From the UHGV virus genome UHGV-2035542: a stretch of DNA of 40,870 nucleotides. One strand, 5' to 3'. Under the pieces are notes generated by a model. That model did no database searches and was not told the origin of the DNA. It was given only the letters and a program-made list of their open reading frames with translations. This stretch comes from a virus. This document shows positions 1-37,333 of the stretch, in pieces. Position numbers and translations under genes: made by a program. Each line of letters opens with the position of its first letter. The first letter of the stretch is position 1.

Positions 1-1254
1 ATGCTGGAACAAATGGGCATTGCCGCGAAGCAAGCCTCGTATAAATTAGCGCAACTCTCCAGCCGCGAAAAAAATCGTGTGCTGGAAAAAATCGCCGATG
101 AACTGGAAGCACAAAGCGAAAGCATCCTCAACGCTAACGCACAGGATGTTGCAGACGCGCGTGCCAATGGCCTTAGCGAAGCGATGCTTGACCGTCTGGC
201 ACTGACGCCCGCACGGCTGAAAGGCATTGCCGACGATGTGCGCCAGGTGTGCAATCTCGCCGATCCGGTGGGGCAGGTAATCGATGGCGGCGTACTGGAC
301 AGTGGCCTGCGTCTGGAGCGCCGTCGCGTGCCGCTGGGGGTGATTGGCGTGATTTATGAAGCGCGCCCGAACGTGACGGTAGATGTTGCTTCCCTGTGCC
401 TGAAAACCGGTAACGCGGTGATCCTGCGCGGCGGCAAAGAAACCTGTCGCACTAACGCTGCAACGGTAGCGGTGATTCAGGACGCCCTGAAATCCTGCGG
501 CTTACCGGCGGGTGCCGTGCAGGCAATTGATAATCCTGACCGTGCGCTGGTCAGTGAAATGCTGCGTATGGATAAATACATCGACATGCTGATCCCGCGC
601 GGTGGGGCTGGTTTGCATAAACTGTGCCGCGAGCAGTCGACAATTCCGGTGATCACAGGCGGTATAGGCGTATGCCATATTTACGTTGATGAAAGCGCAG
701 AGATCGCTGAAGCCCTGAAAGTAATTGTCAACGCGAAAACTCAGCGTCCGAGCACGTGTAATACGGTAGAAACGTTGCTGGTGAATAAAAACATCGCCGA
801 TAGCTTCCTGCCCGCATTAAGCAAGCAAATGGCGGAAAGCAGCGTGACATTACACGCAGATGTAGCTGCGCTGGCGCAGTTGCAGGCAGGCCCCGCGAAG
901 GTGGTGGCTGTTAAAGCCGAAGAGTATGACGATGAGTTTCTGTCATTAGATTTGAACGTTAAAATCGTCAGCGATCTTGACGATGCCATCGCCCATATTC
1001 GTGAACACGGCACACAACACTCCGATGCGATCCTGACCCGCGATATGCGCAACGCCCAGCGTTTTGTTAACGAAGTGGATTCGTCCGCTGTTTACGTTAA
1101 CGCCTCTACGCGTTTTACCGATGGCGGCCAGTTTGGTCTGGGAGCGGAAGTGGCGGTAAGCACACAAAAACTTCACGCGCGTGGCCCGATGGGGCTGGAA
1201 GCACTGACCACTTACAAGTGGATCGGCATTGGTGATTACACCATTCGTGCGTAA
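1..1254 (+). CDS. proA: gamma-glutamyl phosphate reductase, full length (417 aa)
   Basis: 417-aa ORF whose translation ([30 protein letters not shown]...) reads as enterobacterial ProA from memory; GC-rich chromosomal-type sequence. Confidence 0.95.
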
Positions 1255-1368
1255 ATAAAACCGGGTGATGCAAAAGTAGCCATTTGATTCACAAGGCCAT
1301 TGACGCATCGCCCGGTTAGTTTTAACCTTGTCCACCGTGATTCACGTTCGTGAACATGTCCTTTCAGG

Positions 1369-1444
1369 GCCGATATAGCTCAGTTGGTAGAGCAGCGCAT
1401 TCGTAATGCGAAGGTCGTAGGTTCGACTCCTATTATCGGCACCA
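1369..1444 (+). tRNA. thrW: tRNA-Thr (anticodon CGU), thrW-type, 76 nt with encoded CCA
   Basis: Cloverleaf readable by eye: acceptor GCCGATA/TATCGGC, anticodon loop TTCGTAA (anticodon CGT), T-loop TTCGACT, 3' ACCA. Confidence 0.9.
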
Positions 1445-1458
1445 TTTAAATCAATAAG

Positions 1459-2619
1459 TTACCTAGCATTTAAGTAAACCACGTTCTCCTCTTGTGCCGT
1501 ATTTGTGCCATTGCGACTTATAATCGCATCGATTTTGCTCGCGTGCTCGGTGAGATGCCCGGCTGAAAGGTGGGCGTATCTTTGAACCATTTCGAGAGTT
1601 TCCCATCCTCCCATCTCTTTAAGCGCAAGAAGAGAGACACCGGACTGAACCAGCCAGCTTGCCCAGGTATGCCTCAGGTCATGGAAGCGGAAGTTGCTAA
1701 TGCCTGCCCGCTTTAACGCTCCCTTCCATGCCTTGTTGCTGTCGGTTCTCATCTTCCTTACCGCTGCTGTTTTTGTTCCGTCGCTTCGGTAGGCAGGTTT
1801 GGTGTGGACAAATACCCATCTCTTATGGAGCCCCTGCTGTTTTCTTAATATCTGGCATGCGGTTTCGTTAAGAGGAACTCCGATCGCATTGCCAGCTTTT
1901 GTTTCATCAGGGTGCATCCATGCCATTTTCTTATCCAGATCGACCTGTGACCACTCAAGGTCTGTAACGTTGGAACGGCGAAGGCCTGTCGTGATTGCAA
2001 ACATGACCACAGGGAAGAAATGAGGAGCAATTTCTGCAAACAGGCGCTTCGATTCCTCCTCTGTAAGCCATCTGATTCTTCCATTCTTAACGCGTGGTGT
2101 TGATATTTTGGGCGCCCTGTCAAGCCATCCCCATTCAACAGCCATATTGAGAATAGCGCGAAGTATTGCCAGATGCCGCGTCTTCGTTCCTTTGCTTGCC
2201 AGCTTTGGTTTATACTCCGGCACTGGCTTGCCAAGCCGCAAACACCTGTCCCGGCTCATTTCCCAGTTCAGGCGATGGCGGCGGTTTTCCATCCCGTCTA
2301 CCGCCTCCATTATTTTTTCTGTTGTTATGTCTGAGAGAATGGTTTCTCTGAAGTGCAACATCCAGAACGATATAATGCTCTTGTCATCATCAATGGACTT
2401 CTTATCCGATTTCTCACGCAGCCACCGTATGCAGGCTTCCTTGAATAGCTTTTTCGGTGATTCCCCGAGATTTTTTACTCTCCACGCTTCTGCTTTCAGA
2501 CGATCGTGAAGTTCTTGCGCTTGCCTTTTGTCCGATGTTTCAAGAGAACGTCTAACTCTTGATCCATCTGGCGCGACGAAATCGCAGTGCCACGTGCCAC
2601 CGCGTAGTTTGATTGACAT
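1459..2619 (-). CDS. int: tyrosine-type site-specific integrase (P22-like, 386 aa)
   Basis: 386-aa ORF adjacent to the tRNA; C-terminal catalytic region with R...HDLRHT...Y-type motifs (FHDLRHTWAS, VQRYAHL). Confidence 0.9.
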   Translation of the reverse strand: MSIKLRGGTWHCDFVAPDGSRVRRSLETSDKRQAQELHDRLKAEAWRVKNLGESPKKLFKEACIRWLREKSDKKSIDDDKSIISFWMLHFRETILSDITTEKIMEAVDGMENRRHRLNWEMSRDRCLRLGKPVPEYKPKLASKGTKTRHLAILRAILNMAVEWGWLDRAPKISTPRVKNGRIRWLTEEESKRLFAEIAPHFFPVVMFAITTGLRRSNVTDLEWSQVDLDKKMAWMHPDETKAGNAIGVPLNETACQILRKQQGLHKRWVFVHTKPAYRSDGTKTAAVRKMRTDSNKAWKGALKRAGISNFRFHDLRHTWASWLVQSGVSLLALKEMGGWETLEMVQRYAHLSAGHLTEHASKIDAIISRNGTNTAQEENVVYLNAR

Positions 2620-14288: not shown

Positions 14289-15041
14289 ATGGATCCTAAA
14301 TTACTGTATGCCACGTTTAAACGAAATGACGCACCAGCTTGGCGCTGCCCGAACTGTATGAATGAAACACTGGAGATTGTCGCTGATAGTTTTGTAGAAA
14401 CTGATTCAAGCGCAACAACTCAGTTTAGAGATGAAGTATGGTTTGATGAGGAAATGTCGGGAGGAGTATTCAGTTGCGTGCTGCGCTGTACCCGCCAAGC
14501 CTGCCAGGAGAAGGTTGCTTTGTCTGGGCAGGTTGTTGCTGTAGAATGCTTCAATGACGAAATGACGGAGCGTTGGTATGTTTCTGGTTTCCGTCCTAAG
14601 TATTTCTATCCACCACTTCCTCTATTCCTGTTTCCTGAAAAGTGCCCTGAAGATATAGCTGATCTCTTGGCGGAAGTATCAGCTCTGATCCCCTCGCACC
14701 CAGCTTCAGCGGTGAACACCATGAGAACCATACTGGAGATGATGCTTGATAGTCTTGATGTACCAAGAGAGAAAACAGTTAAAGGCAAGATAATACGTCT
14801 TTCTACGCATGAAAGAATCACAAATTATTCAGATAAACTGGGACCAAATAAAGATGCATTCATGGCGTTAAAGTGGTTGGGGAATCACGGCAGTCATGGA
14901 GGGATTAAAGTCACAAGGTCCTCTATTAATGATGCCTGCATTCTCATTGGTCATTTGATTGACTTCTTATTCTTAGAAAGCCCGGATGTAACTATTCATA
15001 TTGAACGGATAAACAACGTGTATGCACCCAAAAAGGAGTAA
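14289..15041 (+). CDS. zinc-ribbon protein with a HEPN/DUF4145-like C-terminal region (degenerate motif)
   Basis: CPNC...CVLRC cysteine pairs; C-terminal KWLGNHGSHGG (N199-x3-H203-G) then a hydrophobic helix; GGAG RBS; AT-rich with its own upstream intergenic region. Confidence 0.55.
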   Translation: MDPKLLYATFKRNDAPAWRCPNCMNETLEIVADSFVETDSSATTQFRDEVWFDEEMSGGVFSCVLRCTRQACQEKVALSGQVVAVECFNDEMTERWYVSGFRPKYFYPPLPLFLFPEKCPEDIADLLAEVSALIPSHPASAVNTMRTILEMMLDSLDVPREKTVKGKIIRLSTHERITNYSDKLGPNKDAFMALKWLGNHGSHGGIKVTRSSINDACILIGHLIDFLFLESPDVTIHIERINNVYAPKKE

Positions 15042-15297: not shown

Positions 15298-15780
15298 ATG
15301 ATAAGTGCAGAAGGACTGCAGCGGTTACTTAATTTATCGGAGCCTCCATCTGATGAACTGATTGATGTTTATCTTCAATTCTGCATGATTTTTCCTAGGG
15401 TCGAGCAAAGTTTTTTTGGTGGCTTTGCTAAGGGGGAAGACAGTTTAAATTATGCGCGAACGTTACTTGACGCCGGGATAAAGGTGCCCAACGAACTTTT
15501 TCACGATTTTAAGCAGAGATACATTTTGAATGGGGATGCGCAGGAAAGACTTGACGCCCTCTGTGTCGGTCGAGAGAGAGATAGGCGGGGAATAGTTAAT
15601 GGACTTCAAAATGACGCAGCAACAGATCTAAACACCATGTCTACAGTATTAAAGATAGTTATAAGGATAAGAAATAACCTTTTCCACGGAAATAAAGACG
15701 CTTATCTTTTTGTTGATTCTCAAGAGCAAGCGCAACTATTGAGGTGGTGCGTGAGATTTCTCCAAGGATTATTAAATTAA
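15298..15780 (+). CDS. HEPN-like protein (R-x4-H motif)
   Basis: C-terminal RIRNNLFHG (R125...H130, codons 15670..15687) followed by a terminal helix; AGGAAGG RBS. Confidence 0.55.
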   Translation: MISAEGLQRLLNLSEPPSDELIDVYLQFCMIFPRVEQSFFGGFAKGEDSLNYARTLLDAGIKVPNELFHDFKQRYILNGDAQERLDALCVGRERDRRGIVNGLQNDAATDLNTMSTVLKIVIRIRNNLFHGNKDAYLFVDSQEQAQLLRWCVRFLQGLLN

Positions 15781-16878: not shown

Positions 16879-17237
16879 ATACTTACCACATCACACTACC
16901 CTGGCCGCCGAGCAATAACCGCTACTACCGCCATAATCGAGGGCGCACGCACATCAGCGCAGAAGGGCAGGCATACCGCGATAACGTCGCCCGAATCATT
17001 AAAGGCTCAATGCTGGATATCGGTCTGGCTATGCCTGTGAAAATCCGCATTGAGTGCCACATGCCGGATCGCCGTCGCCGTGACCTGGATAATCTGCAAA
17101 AGGCCGCTTTTGACGCACTCACCAAAGCGGGTTTCTGGCTGGATGATGCTCAGGTCGTTGATTACCGCGTTGTGAAGATGCCCGTTACCAAAGGTGGAAA
17201 GCTGGAGCTGACCATCACTGAACTGGGAGATGAATGA
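16875..17237 (+). CDS. rusA: RusA Holliday-junction resolvase
   Basis: [26 protein letters not shown]...[25 protein letters not shown] matches RusA from memory. Confidence 0.9.
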
Positions 17238-17374
17238 TGTTTGAGTCTTATATGGCAGAACGTCTTCGCCACCGCTGGATGCGCCTGCGCTTATATCGTT
17301 TCCCCGGTTCTGTTTTGACCGATTACCGAATACTGAAGAATTACGCCAAAACACTGACAGGAGCAGGAGTATGA
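17234..17374 (+). CDS. ylcG: YlcG-like small protein (46 aa, not in the ORF track)
   Basis: ATGA overlap with the rusA stop; translation [46 protein letters not shown]. Confidence 0.55.
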
Positions 17375-17459
17375 AGTCAGAGATAACAATCAACTAATAC
17401 TGTTTTGTTGATTTTTGCTTGTAATTGGCGTTCTGGTCTGAGTTTTGTGGAGTAAGTTG

Positions 17460-17837
17460 ATGCGTGATATTCAGATGGTTCTTGAGCGTTGGGGAGCGTG
17501 GGCGGCTAATAATCATGAAGATGTGACCTGGTCGTCCATTGCCGCCGGTTTTAAGGGATTAATTCCTTCAAAAGTAAAATCTCGCCCACAATGTTGTGAC
17601 GATGACGCGATGATCATTTGCGGGTGCATGGCCCGTCTGAAAAAGAACAACAGCGATTTGCATGATTTATTGGTGGACTATTATGTCGGCGGCATGACTT
17701 TTATGGCGCTTGCACGTAAGCATGGGCGATCTGATTGTTGGGTTGGCAGGATGCTCCAGAAAGCTGAGGGCGTAGTGGAGGGTATGCTGATGGTGTTGGA
17801 TCTCCGATTGGAGATGGATGCTGATTGTTCGAAATAA
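17460..17837 (+). CDS. Q: late-gene antiterminator Q (phage-21/DLP12 type)
   Basis: Position after the nin genes and before a promoter-plus-terminator unit; GGAG RBS; Cys-rich zinc-binding-like segment ([14 protein letters not shown]). Confidence 0.75.
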
Positions 17838-17849
17838 TTAAAGGAAAAG

Positions 17850-17878
17850 TTGCTGTCTGATTGTCATTAGTCTAACAT
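17850..17878 (+). promoter_or_regulatory. candidate late promoter pR' (TTGCTG-N17-TAACAT)
   Basis: Sigma70-like hexamers with 17-bp spacing immediately downstream of Q. Confidence 0.3.
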
Positions 17879-17937
17879 TTTAAATGTTGGAATCGCAACG
17901 TAGTTATTATCATATAACAGCTTGTTTCCTGATTTAG

Positions 17938-17963
17938 CCAGCCTCTCCAAAGGCTGGTTTTTT
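17938..17963 (+). terminator. intrinsic terminator, tR' equivalent
   Basis: CCAGCC-TCTCCAAA-GGCTGG hairpin followed by TTTTTT, about 100 nt after Q. Confidence 0.55.
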
Positions 17964-17991
17964 CTAATAAGTATTATTTCGAGTAGGGATT

Positions 17992-18516
17992 TTATTGTTT
18001 AACCCATAATAATTCATTGACATTGAATCCCAACTTTTGAGCGGTTCGCACATAGTCTGCTTTTACTTTATCTGGAATAGTTGGGGTCCTTGCCAGAATC
18101 CATAGGTATTCTCTGTTCGGACCACTGACAAGAGCATACTTATACTCATCATCCAGTTTGATTACATTATAGCCACCATAGAAGGGGCCAAAAAACGAAA
18201 CCTTCAACGCTGCAGTTTTAGTATCTCCAGTAAAGTATGCTTTACCTTCGCTCTCGCTCCATTTATTTTTCGTTGGATCGTATCCACGGTTAAGTACACG
18301 AATCCCTCCGTCGTTCCGTTTTCCATAAGTAGCGCTGACCTGTTCCAGACCACGTTCGAACCGGTTCTCGAGGCGAGCTATTTCATACCATTTTCCGAGG
18401 TAGCGGTTGGCGTCAAAATTTGTAATCGGCTGCACACCTTTAGGTGGTGTCGGGGCCTTACATGCTATAAGAGTGAAAGAGAGTGCAATGCCAGTCAACA
18501 CAGGCCATAACTTCAT
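17992..18516 (-). CDS. bacterial lipocalin (Blc-like) outer-membrane lipoprotein
   Basis: Lipoprotein signal with LIAC lipobox; NFDANRYLGKWYEIARLENRFERG...FFGPFYGGYNVI matches Blc from memory. Confidence 0.85.
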   Translation of the reverse strand: MKLWPVLTGIALSFTLIACKAPTPPKGVQPITNFDANRYLGKWYEIARLENRFERGLEQVSATYGKRNDGGIRVLNRGYDPTKNKWSESEGKAYFTGDTKTAALKVSFFGPFYGGYNVIKLDDEYKYALVSGPNREYLWILARTPTIPDKVKADYVRTAQKLGFNVNELLWVKQ

Positions 18517-18708
18517 AATAAATCCTGTACTTTTGATAGTTGAGAGTAAGTATGAAAGATAGATGATTACGACCGATCACTTAAAGAACTTTCATACTAT
18601 ATTAGGAATAGTCCATAACAGAAAAATTGTCAGTGATGACGCCAGAAAGGCAATTTATTCCGTGCATTACACAGTTTATGTGTTAATGAATTAGTCAAGG
18701 GGGAGAAT

Positions 18709-19668
18709 ATGATAAAAAAACCTGTGATTGGAATCAGCGGTTGTTTGACCGGTTCTGCTGTTCGTTTTGATGGTGGTCACAAAAGAGCTGACTTTTTAAT
18801 GGACAAATTAGTGGAATGGGTAACATTCAGACCAGTATGTCCAGAAATGGCTATAGGGCTGCCAGTTCCGCGTCCTGCTCTACGTCTTGTGCGCTCGACG
18901 CAAGGAAATATACGGATGTGTTTTAGCCACGACCAGAATGAGGATGTGACAGAGAGAATGACAGAGTTTAGTCGTTCTTATATGAACAAATTAAAGGATG
19001 TATCGGGGTTTGTGGTTTGTGCTAAATCTCCCAGCTGTGGCATGGAGCGCGTGCGTGTCTATGATGAAAATGGTAATCGAGGTCGTAAAGATGGAGTGGG
19101 ACTATTTACGAGCACTTTGATGGAAAAGTTTTCCTGGCTACCGGTTGAAGAGGATGGGCGATTACATGATCCAGTGCTTCGTGAGAATTTTGTTGAAAGA
19201 GTTTTTGCTTTGCATGAGCTCAATCATCTTTACAAGGAGAAATTATCAAGAAGAGAGTTATTAGCTTTTCATAGTCGTTATAAGCTTCAGTTATTGGCGC
19301 ATAGTCAGGCAGGCTATAAAGATATGGGACCATTTGTGGCTGCAATACACGAGTGGGCGGACCTTGAATCATACTTTGAGGTGTATCGTGATAAGCTGAT
19401 GGCGATTCTCAGAAAACCTGCATCACGTAAAAATCACACGAATGTGCTGATGCATATACAGGGGTATTTTAGTAACTACTTAAGTACACGCCAGCGTAAA
19501 GAGTTGAGCGAGGTTATACTTAACTATCGTTCTGGCACATTACCTCTTCTTGCGCCGTTGACTCTGCTGAAGCATTATCTGGGTGAGTATCCTAATGATT
19601 ACTTGCTTACACAGAATTACTTCGATCCCTATCCGGACGAACTGGCTCTAAGACTGATGGTAAATTAA
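18709..19668 (+). CDS. DUF523 (TudS-like thiouracil desulfidase fold)/DUF1722 fusion protein
   Basis: Conserved Cys pattern GISGCLTG, CPEMAIGLPVPRP, SPSCG consistent with a [4Fe-4S] DUF523 domain; C-terminal helical DUF1722-like region. Confidence 0.65.
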   Translation: MIKKPVIGISGCLTGSAVRFDGGHKRADFLMDKLVEWVTFRPVCPEMAIGLPVPRPALRLVRSTQGNIRMCFSHDQNEDVTERMTEFSRSYMNKLKDVSGFVVCAKSPSCGMERVRVYDENGNRGRKDGVGLFTSTLMEKFSWLPVEEDGRLHDPVLRENFVERVFALHELNHLYKEKLSRRELLAFHSRYKLQLLAHSQAGYKDMGPFVAAIHEWADLESYFEVYRDKLMAILRKPASRKNHTNVLMHIQGYFSNYLSTRQRKELSEVILNYRSGTLPLLAPLTLLKHYLGEYPNDYLLTQNYFDPYPDELALRLMVN

Positions 19669-20008
19669 TTGTATGCGATATCATCCAAAAGGATGAGTTC
19701 CTGCATGCAGGATATTTACAATCGTAAAAACTACACTATGATACCCAGAGTGTCAGTTTGTATAAAAACTCTGTTTACGCTGAAGAAACCATTGAGATGC
19801 AACTTAAAGTTGGTAAACATGCCAGTCAAAATATAATATTATGATTCCACGCAGCTATATATAATATAACAGATTGGTTTAATAATTTGTCTTTGTGAGT
19901 TAAATACATAATTTTATACTTGTGATGCAATGAGATTTTCCTTATTGTTGAACTGGCGAATATTGATTTTCCACCTATACTTACCTGGTGTAACCTCAAT
20001 GATATCAG

Positions 20009-20764
20009 GTGGATAATATGCCATACATATGTTCTATCATTTTGGTGTTGAACTCGTTTGATGCCCGAATTGGTAAAGAAGATATTTTGTTTAAAAAAGG
20101 AAGTGCTGTTCTCATTGATTACAATTTAAAAGATTTTTTTTCATCAAATATAGATCATGTAATGATCGTAGATGTTGAAGAGAAAACAGTTAATGATTTC
20201 TTTAAAAGCAACACACTCTCACCTTTTTCTGTAAGAAGGTTTTATCCGGCATACTTGATGGTGGAATGTGAAGATTTTTCATTGTTAAAGAACTTGATTG
20301 CATGCTTGAATTGTGATGGCAGAACTGTGGATTTTGTTAGAAATCAAATATCACTTGCATGTCTTGCTATCTTATCTTCAGAGAAAATAGTGCAAAGTTT
20401 TTTATTTGGATGTCTTAATAGTTTAGGAAGTAAAGTTAAGGCTATTATTCACACGGATATATCTGCAGCATGGAGACTTTGTGATATATCTTCAAGACTG
20501 TATCTGAGTGAAAGTCTGTTAAAAAGAAAATTAAAGCACGAAGGCTTATCATTTAGTAAGTTAATTCTTGAAGAGCGAATGGTGATGGCGGAAAGGTTAT
20601 TAAGCTACAATTTATATTCTGTTGGAAAAGTTGCTGAGATATGCGGTTATGAAAATACGTCATATTTTGTAAGTGTTTTCAGAAGATATTTTGGTGTTCC
20701 TCCCCATCAATATTCATCAAGATTTTTTTTAGAAAAAGACATGATGTCACGTGATACGTTTTAA
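20009..20764 (+). CDS. AraC-family transcriptional regulator
   Basis: C-terminal double-HTH typical of AraC/XylS (LLKRKLKHEGLSFSKLILEERMVMAERLL...VAEICGYENTSYFVSVFRRYFGVPP); very AT-rich. Confidence 0.75.
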   Translation: MDNMPYICSIILVLNSFDARIGKEDILFKKGSAVLIDYNLKDFFSSNIDHVMIVDVEEKTVNDFFKSNTLSPFSVRRFYPAYLMVECEDFSLLKNLIACLNCDGRTVDFVRNQISLACLAILSSEKIVQSFLFGCLNSLGSKVKAIIHTDISAAWRLCDISSRLYLSESLLKRKLKHEGLSFSKLILEERMVMAERLLSYNLYSVGKVAEICGYENTSYFVSVFRRYFGVPPHQYSSRFFLEKDMMSRDTF

Positions 20765-20810
20765 TGATTTTGTAATTTTCGTATTTGATAATTGTATGAT
20801 GCTTTCAGCT

Positions 20811-20842
20811 ACGCCAGAATAATCGCTGGCGTTTTTCTTTTT
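20811..20842 (+). terminator. intrinsic terminator after the AraC-like gene
   Basis: ACGCCAG-loop-CTGGCGT hairpin followed by TTTTTCTTTTT. Confidence 0.5.
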
Positions 20843-20937
20843 GAATAGATGTTCAAGCCTTACGCTAATGTAACTTCTATACCTTTCCTCTTCGTTCCGA
20901 ACCGTGTACACCATCCGTTATTTGCGGAGGTGAGGCT

Positions 20938-21153
20938 ATGAAATCCATGGATAAGTTAACAACGGGCATTGCCTACGGCACCTCCGCAGGCAGTGCTGGC
21001 TACTGGTTTTTACAGCTGCTCGATAAAGTCACGCCCTCACAGTGGGCAGCAATAGGTGTGCTGGGTAGCTTGGTATTTGGCCTGCTGACGTACCTGACAA
21101 ACCTTTATTTCAAGATTAAAGAAGATAAGCGCAAGGCTGCGAGAGGTGAATAA
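20938..21153 (+). CDS. S: class II holin (S21-type pinholin) with dual-start motif MKSM
   Basis: [24 protein letters not shown]...[24 protein letters not shown]; two TMDs; the dual Met start is typical of holin/antiholin pairs. Confidence 0.85.
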
Positions 21154-21650
21154 TGCCTCCATCATTACGAAAAGCTGTTGCTGCTGCTATTGGTGGCGGG
21201 GCTATTGCTATAGCATCTGTGTTAATCACTGGCCCAAGTGGTAACGATGGTCTGGAAGGTGTGAGACATAATCCTTACAAAGACATAGTTGGTGTATGGA
21301 CTGTATGTTACGGACACACCGGAAAAGACATTATGCTCGGTAAAACGTATACCGAAGCAGAATGCAAAGCCCTCCTGAATAAAGACCTTGCCACTGTCGC
21401 CAGACAAATTAACCCGTACATCAAAGTCGATATACCGGAAACAACGCGCGGCGCTCTTTACTCGTTCGTCTACAACGTGGGTGCTGGCAATTTCAGAACA
21501 TCGACGCTTCTTCGCAAAATAAACCAGAGTGATATCAAAGGCGCATGTGATCAGCTACGGCGCTGGACATACGCTGGCGGTAAGCAATGGAAAGGTCTCA
21601 TGACTCGTCGTGAGATTGAGCGTGAAATCTGTTTGTGGGGTCAGCAATGA
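21153..21650 (+). CDS. R: SAR endolysin (lysozyme with N-terminal signal-anchor-release domain)
   Basis: Gly/Ala-rich N-terminal hydrophobic SAR segment ([18 protein letters not shown]) followed by a lysozyme-like catalytic region; overlaps the holin stop. Confidence 0.85.
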
Positions 21651-22105
21651 ACAGAGTAACCGCGATTATCTCCGCTCTGGTTATCTGCATCATCGTCTGC
21701 CTGTCATGGGCTGTTAATCATTACCGTGATAACGCAATCGCCTACAAAGAGCAGCGCGATAACAAGGCCAGTGAACTGGAGAAGGCGAACGCCACCATCG
21801 CTGACATGCGGAAGCGTCAACGTGATGTAGCAGAACTCGACGCAAGATACACAAAGGAGCTTGCTGATGCTAACGCGACTATCGAAAGTCTCCGTGCTGA
21901 TGTTTCTGCTGGGCGTAAGCGCCTGCAAGTCGCCGCCACCTGTGCAAAGTCAACGACCGGAGCCAGCGGCATGGGCGATGGAGAAAGCCCAGGACTTACA
22001 GCAGATGCTGAACTCAATTATTACCGTCTCCGAAGTGGAATCGACAGGATAACCGCGCAGGTTAACTACCTGCAGGAGTACATCAGGACGCAATGTCTGA
22101 AATAA
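21647..22105 (+). CDS. Rz: Rz i-spanin
   Basis: N-terminal TMD then coiled coil; ATGA overlap with the endolysin stop. Confidence 0.8.
21861..22052 (+). CDS. Rz1: Rz1 o-spanin lipoprotein embedded in Rz in the +1 frame
   Basis: Signal peptide with lipobox (LLGVSAC) followed by a Pro-rich mature peptide, entirely inside Rz. Confidence 0.65.
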
Positions 22106-37212: not shown

Positions 37213-37333
37213 CCTTGATGCCTCACCAGTTGGGTGGAATGGCATCGTAACCTACTGGATAAATACTCAATAGTACCATTTCGGTATGCAATCACATCAT
37301 GGTTGCATCATATCATTCGTCTGGAGCAATGAA

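Follow-up and report, generated by a model that had tools for sequence, protein, structure and literature searches.

The stretch of DNA analysed here (the window; 40,870 nucleotides, virus genome UHGV-2035542) is a P22-like E. coli prophage that encodes a P22 coat protein as well as the head-binding domain of a tailspike, and its integration site is the tRNA-Thr(CGT) gene thrW; the tRNA-Thr at 1369..1441 was the only match when the whole window was searched against Rfam at gathering thresholds, and the region from Q to the holin gene returned nothing. The gene beside the integration site encodes an aldehyde-dehydrogenase-family protein and we take it to be proA. Between the late antiterminator gene and the first lysis gene the window carries a lipocalin gene, blc, together with two further genes and several candidate regulatory elements:

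17460..17837, plus strand: late antiterminator Q, QuuD/phage-21 type (PF06530, E 2.5e-51), 125 amino acids according to the RefSeq annotation
17820..20926, strand not applicable: exchangeable cargo segment delimited by blastn against phage ev243, comprising the PR'-like region, terminator, blc, rudS, AraC-like gene and second terminator
17850..17878, plus strand: candidate late promoter PR', TTGCTG-N17-TAACAT, proposed from its position only
17936..17963, plus strand: intrinsic terminator, tR'-like, with a 9-bp stem (17936..17959) containing 5 GC pairs and a T6 run (17958..17963)
17992..18516, minus strand: blc-type lipocalin lipoprotein gene, ATG start, 174 amino acids, product identical to WP_000780581.1, PHROG phrog_2809
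18549..18554, minus strand: putative -10 of the blc promoter, CATACT and then TA, aligning in register with TGCACTACACTTA, which is conserved in chromosomal merR-blc intergenic regions
18591..18603, minus strand: conserved box AATATAGTATGAA of putative function, shared with chromosomal merR-blc intergenic regions (CAATATACTACGAAT)
18709..19668, plus strand: gene for a RudS-type tRNA 4-thiouridine desulfidase (TudS/DUF523 fused to DUF1722; Pfam PF04463 and PF08349), divergent to blc
20018..20764, plus strand: gene for an AraC-family regulator, YdeO/GadX-like (Pfam HTH_18/HTH_AraC), ~31% G+C
20811..20842, plus strand: second intrinsic terminator, 7-bp stem and T-run, between the AraC-like gene and the holin gene
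20938..21153, plus strand: class II holin (EssD/S21 type), first lysis gene (Pfam PF04971, E 2e-35)

A preliminary description, made by reading the sequence without database searches, had proposed a lipoprotein of the Blc type encoded on the minus strand at 17992..18516. The open reading frame was recovered at exactly these coordinates, and both motifs that had been cited in favour of the assignment, YLGKWYEIARLENRFERG and FFGPFYGGYNVI, are present in its translation. The assignment itself held when the product was compared with NCBIfam, Pfam and crystal structures. Residues 1-174 align to positions 1-174 of the 176-position NCBIfam profile NF007786 ('outer membrane lipoprotein Blc') with 316.1 bits, above the curated cut-off of 267 bits, and Pfam PF08212 (Lipocalin_2) matches with E 7e-44. 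Comparison with the E. coli Blc crystal structures 3MBT, 1QWD and 2ACO gave E ~1e-68. The alignments to 3MBT and 1QWD extend without gaps over 155-159 residues and place GKWYEIAR of the phage protein opposite GTWYEIAR. The conserved G-x-W motif that marks the eight-stranded lipocalin beta-barrel is thus present in phage Blc, and this fold is predicted for it. The phage protein is ~60% identical to E. coli chromosomal Blc, with which it shares family, length, a lipoprotein signal and the lipocalin motifs.

The lipobox LIAC that had been reported corresponds to residues 16-19, which makes Cys19 the predicted site of lipidation. In the translation the signal peptide MKLWPVLTGIALSFTLIA is followed by C19 and K20, and by the sequence rule for such signals phage Blc would be a substrate of the type II (lipoprotein) pathway. 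The residue at position +2 is Lys and not Asp, which predicts sorting to the outer membrane. We also considered that the gene could be an artefact of assembly or recombination, or a captured fragment of a chromosomal blc. This can be dismissed, as the gene is full length, its product diverges from E. coli Blc to the extent given above, and it recurs in more than 1,000 genomes and in 12 isolated phages.

With Q upstream and the holin gene downstream, blc occupies the slot between Q and the lysis genes and is antisense to late transcription, as had been claimed. Q is annotated as 'antiterminator Q family protein' in NZ_CP083585. The related phage ev243 has the same Q and the same holin and carries a porin gene on the minus strand as its cargo. 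When the two were compared by blastn, only 17000-17819 and 20927-21916 of the window aligned, the left break falling inside the 3' end of Q. Homology is therefore lost after 17819 and regained from 20927, so that the exchangeable piece is the entire 3.1-kb segment, PR'-like promoter and terminator unit included. This segment is 89-99% identical across lambda-like, DLP12-like and Qin-like backbones. The proposal that blc is cargo in this slot, and that a comparison of related prophages would be informative, was well founded: siblings that share this Q and holin have a minus-strand porin gene of the OmpC/NmpC type, which alternates with the blc cassette. As viable, isolated siblings carry the porin instead, blc is a dispensable insertion between conserved phage genes.

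The porin cargo (NmpC/OmpD/Lc type, found in DLP12-like and PA-2-like phages) resembles blc in its slot, its strand and an outer-membrane destination, which for Blc is a prediction. It differs in being a beta-barrel porin unrelated to a lipocalin lipoprotein, and in consisting of a single gene rather than a cassette of three. A second comparison is offered by bor/iss of phage lambda, which like blc encodes a small lipoprotein (predicted, in the case of Blc, to reach the outer membrane), is a moron close to the lysis genes and is oriented opposite to late transcription. The folds of the two proteins are unrelated, and bor/iss lies downstream of Rz, adjoining it in sibling elements, whereas blc lies upstream of S. 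Lambda bor/iss is expressed in lysogens and is known to confer serum resistance.

A hairpin followed by T6 had been described directly after Q, and folding confirmed it. The nine-pair structure has a free energy of -15.6 kcal/mol (z -4.1) that was equalled by 0 of 200 shuffled sequences; it lies 28 nt from the 3' end of blc and is kept in all blc-type alleles. The promoter TTGCTG-N17-TAACAT that had been paired with it fared less well. The sequence is present at 17850..17878, but it is a weak candidate, matching consensus at 7 of 12 positions and missing from a promoter-scan list with a threshold of 9/12. Its -10 element is also not conserved, reading TAATGT in the Lambda_ev087 allele, whose cassette is ~90% identical. 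Given its position, assignment as PR' is plausible. The second terminator is less stable (-12.1 kcal/mol, z -2.2), and a terminator scan combined with folding found none for blc itself.

We then asked how widespread the gene is and what had been published about it. Among 5,426 complete E. coli genomes, 1,135 carry blc, mostly at an identity of at least 95% and in up to three copies per genome, and in 1,042 of these 1,135 at least 80% of its length is present. A 3.8-kb query spanning Q to the holin gene is covered to at least 80% in 979 of the 5,426. The cassette is also found in 12 isolated lambdoid phages, whose annotation names the gene 'Lipocalin Blc'. Of the 19 lambda-like phages of Mathieu et al. 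(2020), more than half have blc, which the authors list among the morons (PMC6969025). In lambda-like coliphages of the infant gut (1H12, Lambda_ev087, 2E9 and others), blc has 97% protein identity to the window gene, lies on the same strand and takes part in the same order, Q-blc-rudS-AraC-holin; the phages of Mathieu et al. have a lambda-like virion backbone, in contrast to the P22-like prophage at thrW described here. Phage-borne blc, having been published as a moron and annotated in phages, is thus already known as a cargo gene. That report gives no origin, partner gene or expression data for blc (PMC6969025), PHROGs families exist for blc, rudS and the AraC-like gene under the label 'unknown function', and the literature that we searched yielded no phenotype of blc-bearing lysogens. 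What we add is the lineage of this paralogue, its probable joint capture with RudS, and published evidence at the protein level.

The closest relatives of phage Blc are not found in E. coli. Proteins from Enterobacter, Leclercia, Cedecea, Buttiauxella, Huaxiibacter, Raoultella, Kosakonia and Serratia rubidaea are 74-82% identical to it. In a neighbour-joining tree phage Blc falls inside a clade whose genes are linked to merR and rudS, apart from the canonical, sugE-linked Blc of E. coli, Citrobacter and Salmonella. The gene neighbourhoods follow the same division: canonical E. coli blc adjoins sugE and ampC, and in Citrobacter freundii it is followed by an SMR/sugE gene, whereas the lineage of the phage gene adjoins merR and rudS. 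Buttiauxella izardii encodes one Blc of each lineage. The ~60% identity, the separate clade and the merR/rudS neighbours of its relatives lead us to reject phage blc as an orthologue of the canonical ampC/sugE-linked gene. It is not a copy of E. coli blc but a member of a second Blc lineage, and it provides lysogens with an additional paralogue.

The association of this lineage with RudS is close. In all ten of the genome loci L010-L019 (Blc 74-81% identical to the phage protein), as well as in S. rubidaea and the metagenome loci L004-L006, a divergent rudS lies 1.3-2.4 kb from blc, and its product is 70-74% identical to RudS of the window. The genes in between are an mlrA-like merR regulator, a gene for a HiuH-like transthyretin, or both. 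RudS is absent from the 7-kb flanks of the Kosakonia and Pantoea loci and of two Symbiopectobacterium loci (Blc 71-78%). Among 65 loci with a Blc of at most 64% identity, RudS occurs nearby in one (L044), and that copy is 40% identical.

Chromosomal loci of this kind in Enterobacter, Leclercia, Buttiauxella, Raoultella, Huaxiibacter and S. rubidaea share with the phage the divergent arrangement and a homologous promoter region proximal to blc. Unlike them, the phage copy (~43% G+C) is devoid of the regulator and of the transthyretin-like gene, and its blc and rudS stand back to back, 192 nt apart. Searches of 18517..18708 by tblastn and short-word blastn for remnants of a merR or transthyretin-like gene gave matches at the level of chance, the best of them on the wrong strand; no deletion scar was seen in this 192-nt intergenic region, and no merR-like gene is present anywhere in the window. 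The phage therefore holds a derivative of an mlrA-like MerR/RudS locus and not the locus itself. The back-to-back arrangement without the regulator indicates that blc and rudS were probably captured as one unit, and joint capture from a merR-type chromosomal stress locus, of a kind missing from E. coli, appears the most likely origin on grounds of synteny. Synonymous sites of the phage genes are saturated relative to all sampled chromosomal homologues, so that the capture is old and the case for a joint event is a syntenic one.

The second gene of the cassette has been studied in a relative. RudS_vir of phage 1H12 (gp66), whose cassette is ~90% identical in DNA to that of the window, lowered tRNA 4-thiouridine (s4U) when overexpressed, to a smaller extent than the other RudS enzymes tested (Jamontas et al. 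2024, PMC11417400). Phage RudS is 71-77% identical, about equally, to many RudS proteins of the Enterobacterales. These equally distant proteins include that of Citrobacter braakii, encoded in a locus that lacks blc, an observation that counts against joint capture.

The 100 nt upstream of phage blc align with chromosomal merR-blc intergenic regions, the -10-like CATACTTA being in register with CTACACTTA. The candidate -10 at 18549..18554 lies 32 nt upstream of the ATG, matches consensus at only 4 of 6 positions and resembles a -10 of the sigma-S type; no recognisable -35 was found in the upstream region of blc. The canonical gene depends on RpoS and is switched on in stationary phase (PMC4512719). 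In the alignment of phage and chromosomal sequences the box at 18591..18603 has the consensus AATATAsTAyGAA, and when read on the plus strand it offers a -10-like TATATT directed towards rudS. In chromosomal loci a motif resembling an MlrA box, TGkACA-N12-TGTsTA, overlaps the rudS promoter. The window version is degenerate (TGCATT-N12-TGTTAA, 18663..18686) and Lambda_ev087 provides a better match; we treat the presence of this motif upstream of rudS as a hint only.

The preliminary description had supposed that the lipocalin is made in lysogens, and published proteomics data support this. WP_000780581.1, which is identical to the window protein, was quantified by TMT proteomics in mid-log E. 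coli CCUG 70745 in a 2026 study (one strain, one table; PMC13459554). After 15 min of meropenem its abundance had increased 2.0- and 3.0-fold, and Spy, PspC, MliC and other envelope-stress proteins rose alongside it (PMC13459554). The authors of that study named the protein simply 'Blc' (PMC13459554). Phage and chromosomal Blc have no tryptic peptide of at least six residues in common, GVQPITNFDANR and LGFNVNELLWVK being examples of those unique to WP_000780581.1. The signal in CCUG 70745 consequently belongs to the prophage protein. Expression from a repressed prophage is also consistent with the antisense orientation of the gene, its own conserved upstream region and the presence of the protein in both untreated and meropenem-treated cultures, the state of the prophage in CCUG 70745 not being recorded.

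The gene bears the mark of purifying selection. Its two main phage alleles, represented by the window and Lambda_ev087, differ by 19 synonymous and 5 non-synonymous changes, so that 18% of synonymous sites have changed at a dN/dS of 0.07; the corresponding value for rudS is 0.11. A frameshift disrupts the AraC-like gene of strain PK8275, in which blc and rudS are both intact. The low dN/dS and the intactness of blc in 1,042 of the 1,135 genomes that carry it support the view that its function is maintained.

Our preferred reading, to which we assign a probability of about 70%, is that blc is a functional lysogenic-conversion (moron) gene whose product is an outer-membrane lipocalin that is expressed in the lysogen and acts like Blc. 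Transcription would start from a promoter region that was imported with the gene and would oppose that of the late operon. Transcripts from PR' would be stopped short of blc by the tR'-like terminator in the lysogen; after induction, polymerase modified by Q would be expected to read through this terminator and proceed antisense over the gene. The product would be lipidated at Cys19, handed to the Lol pathway and delivered to the outer membrane, present in uninduced lysogens and increasing with envelope stress. By homology, the cavity of the beta-barrel may bind fatty acids or lysophospholipids and so help to maintain the stressed envelope. Campanacci et al. are reported to have described such binding by Blc in 2006. 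To our knowledge, no physiological role has been firmly established even for canonical Blc, which makes envelope maintenance by the phage protein an extrapolation. For the binding of these ligands, PMC4512719 cites Campanacci et al. 2004.

The linkage to rudS suggests a more specific version of this reading, nested within it, in which Blc and RudS form a light or photo-oxidative stress module that has lost its regulator. The module would derive from an MlrA/LitR-like photo-oxidative locus of other Enterobacterales, and would protect tRNA, from which RudS removes the photosensitive s4U, and outer-membrane lipids, of which Blc would handle oxidised or lyso forms, against UVA, blue light or oxidants. 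Lysogens would gain a protection that E. coli otherwise lacks. Besides the connection of this Blc lineage with the mlrA-like merR and RudS, the idea draws on Cedecea, where blc is divergent to the series merR-SnoaL-SDR-amine oxidase-DUF1365-CFA synthase-DUF2878, and on Citrobacter braakii, whose version of the same operon ends with RudS. RudS genes often share light-responsive operons with the genes for photolyase and LitR, RudS overexpression shortens the growth delay caused by UVA, and E. coli itself lacks RudS (PMC11417400), while in Vibrio cholerae the response to blue light is mediated by a MerR-like protein (PMC5241685). A lipocalin of Stenotrophomonas maltophilia, Smlt2367, is encoded last in a CFA-synthase operon controlled by sigmaE/ChrR and is up 165-fold in a chrR mutant (PMC11832516). 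As in the Cedecea arrangement, it belongs to an oxidative-stress operon with CFA-synthase-like genes; it is chromosomal, however, and under ECF sigma/anti-sigma rather than MerR-type control, and its likeness to phage blc is one of gene context. Light control of the enterobacterial mlrA-like locus is moreover extrapolated from Pseudomonas, Vibrio and Stenotrophomonas, the phage lacks the regulator, RudS_vir was the weaker desulfidase among the enzymes tested, and the sole expression datum ties phage Blc to envelope stress by a beta-lactam and not to light. We regard a photo-oxidative or membrane-lipid stress role of the blc/rudS pair as a reasonable but tentative proposal, and the light module as less likely than not. 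If it were true, it would represent lysogenic conversion for survival outside the host and would give bacterial lipocalins a physiological context.

Two further explanations depart from a role of Blc in the host envelope. The lipocalin could be a functionless passenger that hitch-hikes with RudS or the AraC-like gene as the Q-holin segment recombines en bloc. The three genes are indeed nearly always together (979 genomes for the 3.8-kb query against 1,042 for blc, each at a coverage of at least 80%), PHROGs assigns no function to the family, and we know of no striking phenotype of canonical blc mutants. A passenger would not be expected to show a dN/dS of 0.07 across alleles that have diverged at 18% of synonymous sites, to stay intact where its AraC-like neighbour is frameshifted, to conserve its upstream region, or to be detected as a regulated protein in CCUG 70745, and we consider this explanation very improbable. 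Alternatively, the lipocalin could serve the phage directly, through superinfection exclusion, receptor masking or tuning of lysis. The alternative cargo of the slot is an outer-membrane porin, and porins of the Lc/NmpC type alter the receptor landscape. E. coli Blc, however, is attached to the outer membrane from the periplasmic side and so is not surface exposed; the orientation of blc opposes late transcription; and PADLOC found no match for blc, nor for rudS or two nin-region open reading frames of no assigned function. Even though many lambdoid morons encode membrane proteins (PMC6969025), a direct service to the phage strikes us as very improbable, and the effect on phage adsorption that the preliminary description had raised as speculation found no support. 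Function as a conversion gene in the lysogen thus remains the reading that we favour.

This second, phage-borne Blc paralogue is present in about one in five complete E. coli genomes, a point that we did not find in the papers searched. As proteomics papers label the phage paralogue 'Blc', findings that have been attributed to the chromosomal gene may relate to the one on the prophage. The synteny of the paralogue with RudS and an MlrA-like regulator, likewise not found in the searched papers, offers a testable stress context, be it light, oxidative or envelope stress.

The third gene of the cassette was compared with known regulators. Its product scores 130 bits against the NCBIfam YdeO profile, under the cut-off of 348. 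Identity with PatE is ruled out, as PatE is z0321 on OI-8. For PsrA (z1789), a 49-kb EDL933 prophage region with guessed coordinates contained no AraC-family gene and gave no tblastn match. The AT-rich AraC-like gene is probably of separate origin from blc and rudS.

The prophage is seated at tRNA-Thr(CGT) (1369..1444, within window positions 1..2619). The gene upstream of this tRNA encodes a member of the aldehyde dehydrogenase family and was taken to be proA; the integrase gene follows downstream. The location corresponds to the thrW site, which is used by P22-like phages. Features outside the lipocalin gene blc itself that are considered in this part are:

1459..2619, minus strand, tyrosine integrase, downstream of tRNA-Thr(CGT)
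14289..15041, plus strand, DUF4145 protein, extra ORF of the nin region (phrog_1305, 'DNA binding protein')
15298..15780, plus strand, 160-aa protein of unknown function, extra ORF of the nin region (phrog_27260)
18709..19668, plus strand, RudS-type tRNA 4-thiouridine desulfidase, a TudS(DUF523)-DUF1722 fusion divergent from blc
20018..20764, plus strand, AraC-family regulator, ∼31% G+C
37286..39643, tailspike, preceding the acyltransferase gene
39746..40870, plus strand, Acyl_transf_3 family acyltransferase, directly 3′ of the tailspike and continuing past the window end

The antiterminator gene Q is ∼92% identical at the DNA level to that of the porin-type sibling phage ev243 within the portion that both phages share, and between Q and the terminator the only stretch the two phages have in common is ATATAACAG (17912..17920, plus strand). 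ATATAACAG may form a portion of a Q-utilisation or pause site, and in that event the real late promoter may differ from TTGCTG-N17-TAACAT (17850..17878), the candidate put forward in the preliminary description.

The divergent partner of blc, rudS, encodes a protein without a chromosomal counterpart in E. coli, and RudS_vir, its counterpart from phage 1H12, was tested experimentally (PMC11417400). At three chromosomal or metagenomic loci (L004, L017 and L018) a promoter-like element, TTGGAC-N17-TAAGTT, is conserved 5′ of rudS and is overlapped by the box TGkACA-N12-TGTsTA. We take this box to resemble the E. coli MlrA box. The window version (18663..18686, plus strand) is degenerate, and that of Lambda_ev087, a phage with a related cassette, is less decayed (TGTACT-N12-TGTTAA). 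Phage rudS might be subject to cross-regulation by host MlrA.

Two promoter-like sites (19715..19742 and 19810..19837) were found for the region of the AraC-family gene. Its product is closest to YdeO, GadX and HilD, with all curated cut-offs missed. Membership of the Psr/PatE group, acid-resistance regulators encoded by prophages, is possible. Strain PK8275 has a frameshift in this gene.

Morganella phage IME1369_01 also carries a gene for a Blc-like lipoprotein (locus L097, 3465..3980; 54% identity), located on the late strand and flanked by lysis genes and terminase. This gene looks to have been acquired independently, so that temperate phages of enterobacteria have probably gained lipocalin genes on more than one occasion. 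A meropenem-induced 'Blc' has been reported for E. coli CCUG 70745, in the main-text table that lists the differentially expressed proteins (PMC13459554). This protein is the prophage paralogue WP_000780581.1 and not chromosomal Blc; results may be misattributed wherever a study assigns the name 'Blc' to prophage lipocalins.

The two extra nin-region ORFs, for which PADLOC returned no match, are possible further cargo. The acyltransferase is probably an O-antigen acetylase, in which case it would constitute a second lysogenic-conversion gene of the prophage.
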